DNA of 64,000 nt from Escherichia coli (GCF_003019035.1 NZ_CP027447.1), one strand, 5' to 3'. Positions 1 to 3,737 are shown, counted from the stretch's first letter. Numbers and translations: made by a program. The notes: generated from the letters alone by a model not told the origin.

Positions 1-539
1 GTAATCGGAGACTCGGCCATTAAGCGCATCATCTGCGGCCAGTGATGCCAGAGAAAAAACCCCGTCACGCTGCCAACCAGGATGGTTTTCAAAATTGCTT
101 TAAGTAACTCCGCGCCAGTCTGAGCCGAGAACATCCGTTTAATGCCCGGTAGCGGGTTGAGTTTGGAAAACTTCGGCTGCAAGGATTTGCCGCTAAATAC
201 CAGCCCTCCCAGCATGACCGGAGAAATGAGCGCCACCAGTACCACGCCGCTAATCAGTGGCAGCAGCGCCAGCATGGCTTCTCTGATCAGCAGAATAATC
301 TGCCCGAGGATCAGATTCGGGTCATTGATAATACTGTGATCAAAATGCAGCCCAGCGGAGAGCATGCCCGACAATCGACGGGCCAGCGACACACCGCCAA
401 ACCAGATAACACTCACGCCCACTAACAAAATCAGCAGCGAGGTCAGTTCACGGGAACGCGGGATTTGCCCCTCTTCCCGCGCTTTTTCTAGTCGGTGAGG
501 TGTGGGGGCTTCTGTTTTGTCGTCGCTCTCGTCAGACAC
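1..539 (-). CDS. flhB: Flagellar export apparatus protein FlhB, N-terminal part (gene continues beyond window start)
   Basis: Reverse-strand translation from GTG at 539 reads VSDESDDKTEAPTPHRLEKAREEGQIPRSRELTSLL..., recognisable as FlhB N-terminus; not in ORF track because it runs off the window edge. Confidence 0.85.
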   Translation of the reverse strand, partial: MSDESDDKTEAPTPHRLEKAREEGQIPRSRELTSLLILLVGVSVIWFGGVSLARRLSGMLSAGLHFDHSIINDPNLILGQIILLIREAMLALLPLISGVVLVALISPVMLGGLVFSGKSLQPKFSKLNPLPGIKRMFSAQTGAELLKAILKTILVGSVTGFFLWHHWPQMMRLMAESPI

Positions 540-775
540 GTCGCCAATCCTGGAAAGAGTATTAAGCGTAAATGATGCCAGAGCGCAAAGCGTTCAATGG
601 TTTGAGTAAGGGGCAAAACAGGCGGGATTTAGGGCGTTTATGCAAAAAATAGGTTCAGTTGCAGAACGTTTTGCGAACCATTTTCCAGTTCTGAGATTTA
701 GCCATTTAGCCTATAGAATCGCCCACCGCCTCTCTGTTAGTTTGCTAATAATTAAATTATTACAAAGGCGATCAA

Positions 776-2284
776 ATGGAATGGCAACAATTGCTTAACT
801 GCAACCGTCGGAAAGATAATCTAAAAAAAACCAGCATAGAATTTTTACATCCCCTTGCTAGCGGAAGACAAGAGATCGAGCGGGATTACGACCGATTACT
901 TTTTGCTGCGCCAACTCGTCGGCTTGCGGATAAAACACAAGTTTTCCCGTTAGATCAAAATGACAGTATACGGACGAGGCTGACTCATTCTCACGAAGTA
1001 GCAAACTTTGCTCGCGGAATAGGAATGAGACTCGCTTTCGAGATGAAGGAACACATCTTTGGCGAAATACCCACGGGGATTGTCGTTGAACGCGACGTTC
1101 CTGCTCTGTTAGCAGCGATCGGACTGGCACACGATCTCGGTAATCCACCATTTGGGCATCAAGGTGAAGCAGCGATGCGCGCATGGTTTAATAAAAATCT
1201 TCCAGGCCTTCTTGATAAAGAAGTAAACAGCGAAATATATAACGACTTTCTGCAATTTGATGGAAACTCACAAACCCTGCGCCTGGTTACCAAATTACAA
1301 ATTATTAACGATAACTTTGGTCTGAATCTGACCTATGCCACGCTGGCTGCACTGATCAAATATCCCCGAGCTTCATATTCATCGGACAAACATTGGAAAA
1401 AGCACGGTTTTTTCTATTCTGAGCATGAGGTTGTCATGGATGTCTGGCAACAAACGGGCCTTGGCGTACCAGGTAATGATGCCGGTTGCCGCCACCCATT
1501 TACCTGGATAATGGAAGCTTGCGACGATATTGCCTACTCTGTGCTGGACGCAGAAGATACCATCAAGAAAGGATTTGCCTCATACCAGGATTTGCGTGAT
1601 TTTTTGATGTCACAATCCGAGCCGAACGATGTAATTCAACATGTTATTGAAGCTGTAGAGGCCAAAAATGACGCCTGGAAAGAGCAAAGAAATGCACTTT
1701 CACCGGCGGAAATTAATGAACTCAGTATGCAAATGTTCAGAGTTTATGCCACCAGTGCATTGATTAATGCCGTAGTAGAAGCCTTTCGCGAACAATTACC
1801 CACGCTGATGCAGCGTGACTGCCCGTTCAAAGATTTAATCTCGCAAAGCAAAGGTCACGCTCTCTGCACTGCCCTGAAAATGTTCGACCGAACACGAGGC
1901 TACTTTCATCGTTCAGTCTTGCAACTGGAACTTAGGGGATCTAATTACATTACTAACTTGATGGATATGCTCTGGATTGGCATCCATGGACACAAAACAA
2001 AGAAAGAACGAGACGGAGAACGCGAGTCCGCGTCTACAGATAACCTTTTTGTTTCTCGTGAAGAATACCTGTCGGATACTCCCTTTGGTCGCTATGCTTA
2101 CGGGACAATCTCTGAAAATTATCGCCGTGTGTTTGAAGATCCCGCCAATACACTCCCTATTCTTTATAAAGAAGCGCAGTTGCTTACCGACGCAATCTCA
2201 GGCATGACGGATAGTTATTTAATGCGCCTTCACGATGAGCTAAAATCACTGTATGAATGTGGTCTCAAACACCCAACAGCTTGA
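776..2284 (+). CDS. Dgt-family HD-domain deoxynucleoside triphosphate triphosphohydrolase homologue (dGTPase-like), accessory copy
   Basis: 502-aa ORF with AAGG RBS about 9 nt upstream; motifs TRLTHSHEV, LAHDLGNPPFGH, TWIMEACDDIAYSVLDAED and C-terminal ISGMTDSY align with E. coli Dgt motifs as I recall them; local GC about 35-42%. Confidence 0.8.
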   Translation: MEWQQLLNCNRRKDNLKKTSIEFLHPLASGRQEIERDYDRLLFAAPTRRLADKTQVFPLDQNDSIRTRLTHSHEVANFARGIGMRLAFEMKEHIFGEIPTGIVVERDVPALLAAIGLAHDLGNPPFGHQGEAAMRAWFNKNLPGLLDKEVNSEIYNDFLQFDGNSQTLRLVTKLQIINDNFGLNLTYATLAALIKYPRASYSSDKHWKKHGFFYSEHEVVMDVWQQTGLGVPGNDAGCRHPFTWIMEACDDIAYSVLDAEDTIKKGFASYQDLRDFLMSQSEPNDVIQHVIEAVEAKNDAWKEQRNALSPAEINELSMQMFRVYATSALINAVVEAFREQLPTLMQRDCPFKDLISQSKGHALCTALKMFDRTRGYFHRSVLQLELRGSNYITNLMDMLWIGIHGHKTKKERDGERESASTDNLFVSREEYLSDTPFGRYAYGTISENYRRVFEDPANTLPILYKEAQLLTDAISGMTDSYLMRLHDELKSLYECGLKHPTA

Positions 2285-3005
2285 ACAGCGTATCGCCGAT
2301 TTTTTTACGCTTAGTGATGAGCATAAGAAAGCCAGAGTATTACTTGATACTCTGGCCTGTTCCTGTCCGGCCTGGATTTTTGGCGGGATGGTGCGTGACT
2401 TAGGCTTGTTTGGCGTCGAGGGATTCTCTTCAGACCTTGATATCGTCATCGGTCGCTCCCGTGAGGAACTCTTCCGGACATTGGCTGAACTGCCCGTCAA
2501 ACAACTGCGTTTTAATAAGTTCGGTGGGATCCGTTTTCGTTATCACGACTTCGAATTTGATATCTGGAACCTCAATGAGACATGGGCATTTCGGGAAAAA
2601 CTTATATTTTGTGAGGATGAATCAAGTCTGTTAAACACTACGCTGATGAGTTGGGATGCCGTGCTCTATGATCTACGTAGTGAAAAAATTATCAGTAAAG
2701 ATAATTATTTGACCGACTTAAATCGCAGACATCTTGAACTTGTTCTTCATACTAACCCCAATCCAAGCGGTTCGGTAACGAAAATTTTACGCACTATTTT
2801 TACTAAGCAGGTAAAGAGTTTAGGTCCGGAACTCTGTCATTTCTTGCACCATGAACTGACGAAAAAACGTTATGAAGTTTGGCATCATTACGATGTACTG
2901 CACTACCAGTCATCGTCATTTTCTCGTTCACAATTTAATGCGTTGATAAATTTACTGGCGCAACAATCACGCTTCGCTGATCTAAAATTATCAAATTACA
3001 AATAA
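2253..3005 (+). CDS. Pol-beta superfamily nucleotidyltransferase-like protein (tRNA-NT/poly(A) polymerase head-like motif), unknown function
   Basis: 250-aa ORF overlapping the upstream gene by 32 nt; motif WIFGGMVRDLGLFGVEGFSSDLDIVIG resembles the GGxVRD...DxD head motif of CCA-adding enzymes and PcnB; the rest has no recognisable body/tail domain. Confidence 0.65.
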   Translation: MNVVSNTQQLEQRIADFFTLSDEHKKARVLLDTLACSCPAWIFGGMVRDLGLFGVEGFSSDLDIVIGRSREELFRTLAELPVKQLRFNKFGGIRFRYHDFEFDIWNLNETWAFREKLIFCEDESSLLNTTLMSWDAVLYDLRSEKIISKDNYLTDLNRRHLELVLHTNPNPSGSVTKILRTIFTKQVKSLGPELCHFLHHELTKKRYEVWHHYDVLHYQSSSFSRSQFNALINLLAQQSRFADLKLSNYK

Positions 3006-3049
3006 CCATCCTCCACATACTTCCTGAACGATACCCGCCCCCCTGCTAT

Positions 3050-3074
3050 CGGCCTGGCATCATCGCGCAGGCCG
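3050..3074. other. 7-bp inverted repeat hairpin (CGGCCTG-N11-CAGGCCG) between the cassette 3' end and the cheZ stop
   Basis: Perfect inverted repeat read in sequence; no flanking T-run on either strand, so not a canonical intrinsic terminator. Confidence 0.3.
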
Positions 3075-3092
3075 AAGTTAAGGCAATACAAA

Positions 3093-3737
3093 TCAAAATC
3101 CAAGACTATCCAACAAATCGTCCACCTGATCCTGACTGGCTACCACACCGGCTTTGCTGGTATCGACCTGAGGTCCATTAAGCAAACTCTGGTTTTCACG
3201 TTTTGGACGCGACTCCTGTTCCGGGATGTTTTCCAACAGCACCATCAGCAACTGACGTTCGATCTCCTGAATGACATCCATCATCCGCTTAATGACCTGC
3301 CCGGTGAGATCCTGAAAATCCTGCGCCATCATGATTTCCAGCAGTTGCGCGTTAGTAAAGCTGGTATGCACGGGGACATCTACCAGAAATTGCCGCGTAT
3401 CTGTTACCAGTTCTCGGGCGTCGGCAAGGTCGATCGGATCGGCAAACCAGTCATCCCAACGTTGGGTTAACGCTTTTGCTGATTTCTCCATTTGATCCTG
3501 ATGCGGTTGTGACGCCTCAACACTGTTCAGCGCCCGCTCCGCAGCCTGGGCGGTCATCTGCACAACATAGTACAAACGATCGCGCGCATCGGGGATGGCT
3601 TCCGCCGCTTCGGCAATGGCCTGATCCAGCCCCAGCTCCCGCAAACTGTCGCGCAGCATACGCGTCAGGCTGCCGATGCGCGCAATGATATCGCCAGCTG
3701 AATGCTCGTCAGCAGGTTTGATTGATGGTTGCATCAT
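3093..3737 (-). CDS. cheZ: Chemotaxis phosphatase CheZ
   Basis: Translation [24 protein letters not shown]... to ...DDLLDSLGF matches E. coli CheZ; start taken at MMQP inside the longer track ORF. Confidence 0.95.

Follow-up and report, generated by a model that had tools for sequence, protein, structure and literature searches.

The first 5 kb of the 64,000-nt stretch of Escherichia coli DNA analysed here (GCF_003019035.1, NZ_CP027447.1; hereafter the window) carry flhB (1-540, minus strand), two plus-strand genes, and then cheZ, cheY and cheB (from 3093, minus strand). According to the original prediction, the two plus-strand genes, encoding an HD-domain protein and a nucleotidyltransferase (NTase), overlap by 32 nt, and an overlap of this kind suggests translational coupling within a tightly co-expressed two-component module. 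The questions raised by this locus are what the gene pair is, whether the NTase gene really starts inside its neighbour, and what the overlap says about the way in which the second gene is translated.

Genomic context of the two-gene cassette

The two genes occupy an AT-rich cassette with a G+C content of 43.9%, as compared to 53-54% in the flanks. It stands in the place of some 90 nt of REP-like DNA that lie between the flanking genes in K-12-type strains, as seen by comparison with the empty site of strain C600. Among 5426 complete E. coli genomes, 106 (2%) carry a cassette of the window type, and 8 one of the H5 type, discussed below. The main elements of the locus are:

636..3066: AT-rich two-gene cassette between flhB and cheZ, delimited by alignment to the C600 empty site
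691..719, plus strand: candidate operon promoter upstream of cloA, weak and sigma-70-like (CTGAGA-17-TAGAAT, 9/12 match)
776..2284, plus strand: cloA, Dgt-family dGTP triphosphohydrolase of 502 aa, predicted toxic effector, with its stop codon TGA at 2282-2284
2253..3005, plus strand: cloB, Pol-beta-superfamily nucleotidyltransferase of 250 aa, presumed p3diT synthase by homology to H5 CloB and by its AF2 fold
3037..3084: hairpin rich in G+C, located where the 3' ends of cloB and cheZ converge (-24.3 kcal/mol, z=-3.1)

The promoter scan returned no more matches than it did in shuffled sequence, and the element at 691..719 is hence a candidate only; the same scan found no plus-strand promoter match inside cloA. 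The hairpin at 3037..3084 was not called by the terminator scan because it is not followed by a T-run, and it may represent either the end of the transcript or a stabiliser. No Rfam family was matched in the region 500-3200. A third-frame ORF (2257-2403, 48 aa) was dismissed as a chance ORF, its length being unconserved in relatives (18, 62, 28, 10 and 1 codons).

Identity of the gene pair

Clover is an anti-phage system composed of CloA and CloB (Yamaguchi et al. 2025, PMC12265719; PDB 9p8s-9p8v). CloA assembles into a clover-shaped octamer, and its dGTPase activity is turned on by dTTP, the level of which goes up when T5-like phages infect the cell; CloB is a nucleotidyltransferase whose product, the dinucleotide p3diT, binds to CloA and keeps it inactive, and without active CloB, CloA is highly toxic (PMC12265719). 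Inhibition of CloA by the p3diT that CloB makes, defence against T5-like phages and toxicity of the CloB-dead operon were shown for the Salmonella and E. coli H5 systems, and the product alone for that of Xanthomonas (PMC12265719).

The first protein of the window pair scores 284 bits against TIGR01353 (cut-off 152), matches the PADLOC 'dGTPase' model with E=9e-71 and the octameric CloA structures 9p8s-9p8v with E about 1e-190 (3e-190 for 9p8s), and its AF2 monomer model has a pLDDT of 90. Its similarity to the structures of stand-alone dGTPases, namely the anti-phage Sp-dGTPase of Shewanella putrefaciens (Tal et al. 2022, PDB 9p8w) and the housekeeping Dgt of E. coli (4x9e), is much weaker (E=3e-24 and 1e-37). 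These enzymes share the HD fold and the dGTP triphosphohydrolase chemistry but, unlike the window pair, they have no partner NTase gene; Sp-dGTPase is a hexamer and is constitutively active in vitro (PMC12265719). Three segments of cloA are of particular relevance:

866..895, plus strand: codons of the p3diT pocket residues R31, R36 and R40, corresponding to Salmonella R29, R34 and R38 (residues mapped via the CloA alignment, roles from PMC12265719)
1130..1168, plus strand: HD motif (H119 D120) and HE catalytic dyad (H128, E131), invariant in 36/36 CloA sequences
2201..2212, plus strand: 'GMTD' motif of CloA (G476-D479), defined in the CloA alignment and used below as the upstream anchor of the junction

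The functional residues named in PMC12265719 for catalysis, dTTP sensing and p3diT binding are almost all kept in the window CloA (33 out of 34). The complete set of catalytic-feature residues (H71, H119-D120, H128, E131 and D250) is invariant across the 36 sequences, and the dTTP activator pocket (R47, D61, Q172, K256, S418, N420, A444, T449, Y452) is identical at 9/9 positions, with T478 and Y481 of the window protein forming part of it. The p3diT pocket (Salmonella T25, R29, R34, D37, R38, F41, N75, N181, Q311, R314) is identical at nine of its ten positions, the counterparts being R31, R36, D39, R40, F43, N77, N184, Q319 and R322, and T25 being replaced by L27. The octamer-contact residue H263 corresponds to Q271.

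The second protein and CloB of E. coli H5 share 35% identity (E=1e-54). Its AF2 model (pLDDT 92) adopts an NTase fold, for which class II CCA-adding enzymes are the best solved folds; it also shows a weak match to the PolyA_pol head, and no sequence relative was found in the PDB. Like the Clover partner gene, it is an adjacent, co-directional Pol-beta NTase harboring a [D/E]h[D/E]...h[D/E]h site, here made of D61, D63 and D103. The numbering of the DxD motif was checked on loci L012 and L050, the latter being that of E. coli H5.

2280..2306, plus strand: conserved N-terminal motif of CloB (L10-x-x-R13-I14-x-x-F17-F18), defined in the CloB alignment and used below as the downstream anchor
2433..2441, plus strand: catalytic D61-x-D63, corresponding to D71/D73 of the Salmonella/H5 type, invariant in the CloB alignment
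2559..2561, plus strand: third catalytic acidic residue, D103, invariant in the CloB alignment

Judging from sequence comparison and structural models, the window pair is a Clover anti-phage operon, all features of membership that can be tested in silico being present. By homology, a dTTP surge elicited by T5-like phages would switch on the dGTPase activity of the window CloA and so starve phage DNA synthesis, and the window CloB would make p3diT and thereby keep CloA off in uninfected cells.

The pair shares with the Clover systems of E. coli H5 and Salmonella enterica SA20044414 its gene order, its strand arrangement and an overlapping cloA-cloB junction. It is nevertheless distinct from the tested H5 system, which is of a Salmonella-like type and lies at another site, namely a tRNA-Sec integrase island instead of the flhB-cheZ interval. 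The two CloA proteins are 60% identical, that of the window having an insertion of about 20 residues around 407-427; CloB of the H5/Salmonella type carries an N-terminal extension of 9-10 residues that is lacking in the window CloB; and the H5 junction overlaps by 47 nt rather than by 32 nt.

Start site of cloB

The ORF coordinates confirm the overlap of 32 nt between the HD gene (776-2284) and the NTase gene (2253-3005), and RefSeq/PGAP annotates an identical overlap in the identical locus of E. coli strain SCU-301. The junction contains the following elements:

2235..2243, plus strand: vestigial start in frame with cloB (ATG-AGC-TAA), located where cloB of the H5/Salmonella type has its start codon (compared with L050 5370-5375)
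2253..2284, plus strand: 32-nt overlap, encoding CloA 493-502 (YECGLKHPTA + stop) and CloB 1-11 (MNVVSNTQQLE)
2259..2261, plus strand: alternative in-frame GTG start at codon 3 of cloB, with which the overlap would be 26 nt

The cloB frame is +1 relative to that of cloA, and both are open across 2244-2284, the NTase ORF opening at 2244, just after the TAA at 2241-2243. Its first start codon is indeed the ATG at 2253, as originally predicted, but this ATG is not the sole start inside the HD gene, since the GTG at codon 3 had been overlooked. Going by its sequence and position, the upstream ATG-AGC-TAA is a relic of a longer, H5-type start.

Annotated long overlaps are often start-codon mispredictions, and this general tendency would favour an annotation artefact, the true cloB start lying downstream of 2284 with no overlap at all. 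However, no canonical cloB start exists between 2262 and 2387, and the next one, the ATG at 2388 (M46), sits beyond the invariant G44-G45 of the NTase motif; its use would delete these two residues together with a conserved helix modelled at residues 7-17 with a pLDDT above 90. Moreover, hardly any deviation is seen among 25 homologues at L10, R13, I14 and F18, and CloB is encoded past the cloA stop from R13 onwards. The missing start, together with the conservation of R13, I14 and F18 just past the cloA stop, rules out a downstream, non-overlapping start, and an artefact of annotation appears extremely improbable. The validated H5 operon is under the same constraint: its only possible cloB starts are an ATGATG at L050 5370/5373, 44-47 nt inside cloA, and the 2200-nt fragment expressed in PMC12265719 has the cloA start codon and the cloB stop codon as its exact ends. 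Toxicity was seen with the CloB-dead operon but not with the wild-type one, which shows that this fragment yields functional CloB and hence that an overlapping, internal start works in a validated operon. In favour of the GTG at 2259, it shares the cloB frame and lines up with the V that is conserved in the MNMKV/MNVV N-termini. Still, ATG is the stronger start codon, an ATG is found at M1 or M3 in every homologue, that at 2253 aligning with M3 of many of them, and the Shine-Dalgarno (SD) score of the GTG is even poorer (+0.8); we hold initiation at this codon to be quite unlikely. Finally, the two frames being open across 2244-2284 could also accommodate a programmed ribosomal frameshift producing a CloA-CloB fusion protein. 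This was rejected, as no slippery heptamer is present in 2240-2284 and the frame relation is not conserved among relatives (23 overlaps in phase 1, that is, with overlap mod 3 = 2, 10 in phase 2, and 3 junctions that abut in frame); the local fold is likewise unremarkable, and CloA and CloB were purified separately in PMC12265719, making a fusion the least credible of these readings. Hence cloB starts inside cloA, at ATG 2253 or, less likely, at GTG 2259.

The junction in homologous loci

Scanning a single genome for each species yielded 43 loci, to which two were added from contigs of the closest homologues. Junction lengths were determined for 37 cassettes, taking the start codon 9-18 codons ahead of the CloB motif. 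In every homologous locus with upstream sequence, a cloA homologue lies directly upstream of cloB on the same strand, and this arrangement extends over the 37 cassettes from enterics to Verrucomicrobia and Bacillota. Two patterns that had been put forward as evidence against the original prediction were not encountered: no cloB without a cloA homologue was found in the loci fetched, and use of a downstream, non-overlapping start in place of the internal one was not seen in homologous loci.

The genes overlap or abut in 36 of the 37 cassettes, a proportion that exceeds chance, and the junctions range from a 50-nt overlap to a 15-nt gap. Enteric cassettes overlap by 50, 47, 44, 38, 32 or 29 nt, those of other gamma- and betaproteobacteria and of a verrucomicrobial MAG by 20, 17, 14, 13, 11, 8 or 4 nt, and those of alphaproteobacteria by 4, 1 or 0 nt; the 15-nt spacer belongs to a single Bacillota MAG. 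An overlap of exactly 32 nt is restricted to the window subclade (the window, L046 and L047) and to one coincidental case (L026). What is conserved across homologous loci is thus the tightness of the junction and not the overlap in its given length (+50 to -15 nt).

Most loci, from E. coli to Verrucomicrobia, have the GMTD codons of CloA 79-85 nt away from the LxxRI codons of CloB, and the CloB start usually lies 9-11 codons ahead of the CloB motif. Family-wide, this start holds a nearly constant place immediately behind the final conserved helix of CloA. The CloA tail beyond GMTD varies from 17 to 33 residues across loci, the residues encoded by the overlap are variable in sequence, and the AF2 confidence declines along the tail of the window CloA (block means of 96, 75 and 48). 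When only the three closest cassettes are compared, no part of the operon is better conserved than the junction (identity 0.90-0.93 vs 0.60), as is expected from dual coding, and a conserved nucleotide element seemed promising at this scale. It is gone in the comparison of 13 enteric and gammaproteobacterial cassettes, where junction identity is only average (0.49-0.57 vs a mean of 0.54). The junction therefore has a conserved geometry but no family-wide sequence element.

Origin of the 32-nt length

The near-fixed spacing of the two anchors and the variable CloA tail imply that the length of the overlap is set by the place where the CloA frame meets a stop codon. In the window, the TGA at 2282-2284 is formed by the CloB codons L10-E11 (cTT GAa), which gives 27 + 5 = 32 nt, and the same stop trap is used in L002, L003, L004, L008 and L010. 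The CloA frame would accordingly run 10 codons into cloB until it is closed by the TGA arising from these conserved codons, and the overlap would be tolerated since what it encodes is the variable CloA tail. A short junction of the ATGA or TGATG type is impossible in the window lineage because the frames are in phase 1.

These features can be compared with what is known of overlapping genes in general. Long overlaps typically arise from stop-codon loss, 'without translational coupling' (PMC10666635; Huber, Soppa and colleagues): when the stop is lost or displaced, the upstream ORF is extended up to whichever stop it happens to meet first within the downstream gene (PMC10666635). From there, overlaps in phase 2 can shrink down to ATGA or TGATG, whereas phase-1 overlaps stay long, with a minimum of 8 nt (PMC10666635); the numbers of phase-1 and phase-2 overlaps among the Clover cassettes (23 vs 10) fit this route. 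Overlaps of -10 to -60 nt are about 4-fold rarer than those of the -1/-4/-8 class (PMC10666635), so that a long overlap is uncommon, not rare. Altogether, the 32 nt look like a by-product of stop-codon placement and not like a tuned length.

Translation signals and expression of cloB

The anti-SD score at the cloB start is -1.9 kcal/mol, no better than at background positions in cloA (median -2.4), whereas 42 other genes of the window have a median of -5.6. The same holds family-wide, with medians of -1.9 for cloB and -5.4 for cloA (paired Wilcoxon p=2e-6, a statistic that ignores phylogeny). None of the 23 long-overlap loci reaches -4 at cloB, the single spaced locus scores -6.9, and SD strength rises as the overlap shortens (Spearman 0.46, p=0.005, without correction for phylogeny). 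No structure occluding the cloB start is supported in the window (local fold z=-0.05), where the accessibility of the start is at the 55th percentile; it is above the 80th in 17 of 36 loci. Coupling by the unfolding of RNA is left unsupported by these two values for the window, and an open start would suit independent initiation just as well.

Termination-reinitiation is another possible route. Efficient reinitiation is associated with spacings of about -8 to +6 nt (PMC10666635), outside of which the window junction falls with either 32 nt or, if GTG 2259 were used, 26 nt. In native E. coli pairs, reinitiation drops steeply with the distance between stop and start, a spacing of +14 nt causing a loss of 40-80% and one of +38 nt nearly abolishing it (PMC10666635). 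Given this steep dependence, the 29-nt backward step required in the window may be inefficient.

Co-expression of cloA and cloB is well supported, and a single transcript would carry both genes. As cloB lacks an SD and an occluding structure, and as no separate promoter is predicted for it, it is probably initiated weakly and with the assistance of ribosomes already translating cloA. Some inhibitor synthase would in this way accompany every production of toxic CloA, and a low level of CloB would suffice, the protein being catalytic.

The inference originally drawn from the overlap itself finds no support in that form: the 32-nt length is unconserved (+50 to -15 nt) and is explained by the position of the CloA stop, and PMC10666635 describes long overlaps as typically uncoupled and reinitiation as steeply distance-dependent. 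Taking all lines of evidence together, we consider it likely that this is a Clover junction with a real internal start, in which the 32 nt result from stop placement and cloB initiation is probably assisted by cloA; that translation of cloB truly depends on that of cloA is plausible, with roughly even chances. The overlap could instead be incidental, cloB being translated independently by ribosomes that initiate de novo, without an SD, at an open and moderately A/U-rich start region, and co-transcription being the sole link between the two genes. The start is unusually accessible in many loci (the 17 out of 36 mentioned above), the overlap length varies freely among loci, there is no family-wide junction element (0.49-0.57 vs 0.54), and the report of long overlaps as typically uncoupled (PMC10666635) is in line with this. 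Nevertheless, spacers are missing in 36/37 loci and the SD is missing exactly where the overlap is long, a pattern that is easier to explain if cloA ribosomes matter, and the cloB start of the window is no more than average in accessibility; independent initiation is thus a serious but somewhat less probable reading. The opposite view, in which the 32-nt overlap is itself a selected coupling device fixing the CloA:CloB ratio, can draw on the exact preservation of 32 nt in the three closest cassettes, with the junction as their most conserved segment, on the lack of an SD at cloB and on the toxicity of CloA without CloB. It is unlikely in view of the family range from +50 to -15 nt, of the loss of the high junction conservation in the 13-cassette comparison, of the mechanical origin of the 32 nt from frame phase and the CloB L10-E11 codons, and of the literature, in which coupling is best at -1/-4 (PMC10666635).

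Comparison with other two-component systems

The gene pair had been likened to toxin-antitoxin (TA) or sensor-effector modules. In enzyme-antitoxin modules such as type VII HepT-MntA, which are two-gene operons as well, the toxin is neutralised by a protein of the NTase fold; in these, as in the two-gene operons of reverse-order type II TA modules, cells do not survive losing the second gene. The original likening turns out to be essentially right, given the Clover match and the adjacency of the genes in homologous loci, the two forming an obligate two-component module, except that the pair is not a classical protein-protein TA. In contrast to enzyme-antitoxin TA, the Clover effector is neutralised by a diffusible dinucleotide, without covalent modification or protein binding, and it is gated by a phage-induced metabolite. 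By analogy, neutralisation in the window pair would occur via p3diT acting on CloA and not via CloB binding (PMC12265719), and we do not file the pair as a type II TA.

In Hailong (HalA/HalB) and Panoptes/MISS, a constitutive nucleotide signal from a partner NTase or cyclase represses a toxic effector (PMC12265719). Clover shares this negative-signal logic, but the effectors and the signals of these systems are different ones (oligo-dA, 2'3'-c-di-AMP). The window cassette is, by this analogy, a system that would work like Hailong, Panoptes and the enzyme-antitoxin TA modules without being a member of any of those families.

With respect to the junction, gene pairs expressed by termination-reinitiation (TeRe; -4/-1/-8 overlaps; Huber et al. 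2019; PMC10666635; review PMC12548453) resemble the window pair in being co-directional and spacer-free and in missing the downstream SD. The alpha- and betaproteobacterial relatives of Clover have ATGA or abutting junctions, as in TeRe pairs, whereas the 32-nt overlap of the window lies beyond the -8 to +6 range of measured efficient TeRe (PMC10666635).

Implications

The Clover system is already known, and its overlapping junction is an ordinary operon feature, although one that is not discussed in the Clover paper, where the word 'overlap' occurs 0 times (PMC12265719). What is added here is the family-wide geometry of the junction, the SD-less cloB start and an explanation for the 32-nt length, as well as what appears from sequence comparison to be a second Clover type in E. 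coli, which 2% of complete genomes carry at the conserved flhB-cheZ site. Such cassettes are likely miscalled as stand-alone dGTPases because PADLOC v2 recognises only the dGTPase and RefSeq labels cloB a 'hypothetical protein'. Since cloB starts inside cloA, deleting, tagging or recoding the CloA C-terminus changes CloB residues 1-11, and vice versa, and the dual-coded junction matters in practice because CloB-null constructs are toxic. The value of these observations lies mostly in annotation and experimental design.

Beyond this, the pattern of no spacer and no SD offers a concrete hypothesis for how an inhibitor synthase may be tied to a toxic effector. In its strongest form, which we regard as improbable, the SD-less, spacer-free junction, which persists from enterics to alphaproteobacteria at any length, would be a selected design that makes CloB synthesis strictly dependent on, and sub-stoichiometric to, CloA translation. 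If this were true, p3diT would be supplied in step with CloA production, CloA could also be released by a second, TA-like trigger when a phage blocks host translation, and the long phase-1 overlaps of enterics would represent a low-efficiency setting of the coupling.

The cloA/cloB junction and the edges of the cassette

Four small features lie at the junction of the two Clover genes and at the edges of the cassette:
640-798, + strand: 52-aa ORF overlapping the cloA start and a weak promoter-like site (691-719)
2235-2243, cloB frame: ATG-AGC-TAA
2257-2403, + strand: third-frame ORF of 48 aa, starting at ATG 2257
3037-3084: stable hairpin rich in G+C (-24.3 kcal/mol, z=-3.1), separating the 3' ends of the convergent genes cloB and cheZ

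The ATG-AGC-TAA triplets occupy the same position as the start codon of the H5/Salmonella-type cloB, and are a relic of a CloB N-terminal extension of 9-10 residues that was lost in the subclade of the window. Just downstream, all three forward frames are open at 2257-2281, and the segment ATGAATGTGG contains ATG, ATG and GTG across two frames. The third-frame ORF is probably due to chance, since its length varies among relatives and is not conserved. The 52-aa ORF at the 5' edge is probably spurious. At the 3' edge, the hairpin, which has no T-run, could serve as an end or stabiliser of both the cloB and cheZ transcripts.

Differences from the H5/Salmonella Clover

Relative to the CloA of E. 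coli H5 and Salmonella, that of the window harbors an insertion of about 20 residues (residues ~407-433; 1994-2074) that is rich in charged residues (KTKKERDGERESASTDNLFVSREEYLS). It falls within the C-terminal helical bundle, the part of the published structure that determines oligomer geometry (PMC12265719). Moreover, the octamer-contact residue H263 of the H5/Salmonella Clover is replaced by Q271. The tested H5 Clover (locus L050, 1-7633; NZ_CP010169) lies within a tRNA-Sec island carrying a tyrosine integrase. Its neighbors code for a 7-cyano-7-deazaguanine synthase, a PfkB kinase, a DNA adenine methylase and an 8-oxoguanine glycosylase, and together resemble a defence cluster of a deazaguanine DNA-modification or restriction-like type.

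Annotation, decay and distribution of the cassette

With cloB labelled 'hypothetical protein' in RefSeq and no model for CloB in PADLOC-DB v2, the cassette (776-3005) is scored as a lone dGTPase. A few E. coli genomes have two 'hypothetical proteins' annotated in the expected place of dgt.

Cassettes in decay were observed at three homologous loci (L003, 2796-3996; L014, 2763-4561; L040, 3740-4533), and cloA is broken in all of them, as expected if losing cloB alone is lethal. In Erwinia persicina NBRC 102418, cloB is intact and cloA frameshifted, and in two Buttiauxella species truncations or frameshifts affect both genes, sequencing error being possible in either case. Nine further E. coli genomes harbor only partial cassettes (for example NZ_CM143886, with 609 nt of cloA).

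Clover cassettes convergent to cheZ are present in at least seven enteric genera (window, 636-3066; loci L005-L010, L013, L014, L040, L046 and L047). They are highly diverged in sequence type, with CloB identities of 35-73%; CheZ itself is 78-89% identical. The cheZ site reflects either a long-standing residence with rapid divergence and frequent loss, only 2% of E. coli having kept the cassette, or the swapping of alleles via the conserved flanks.
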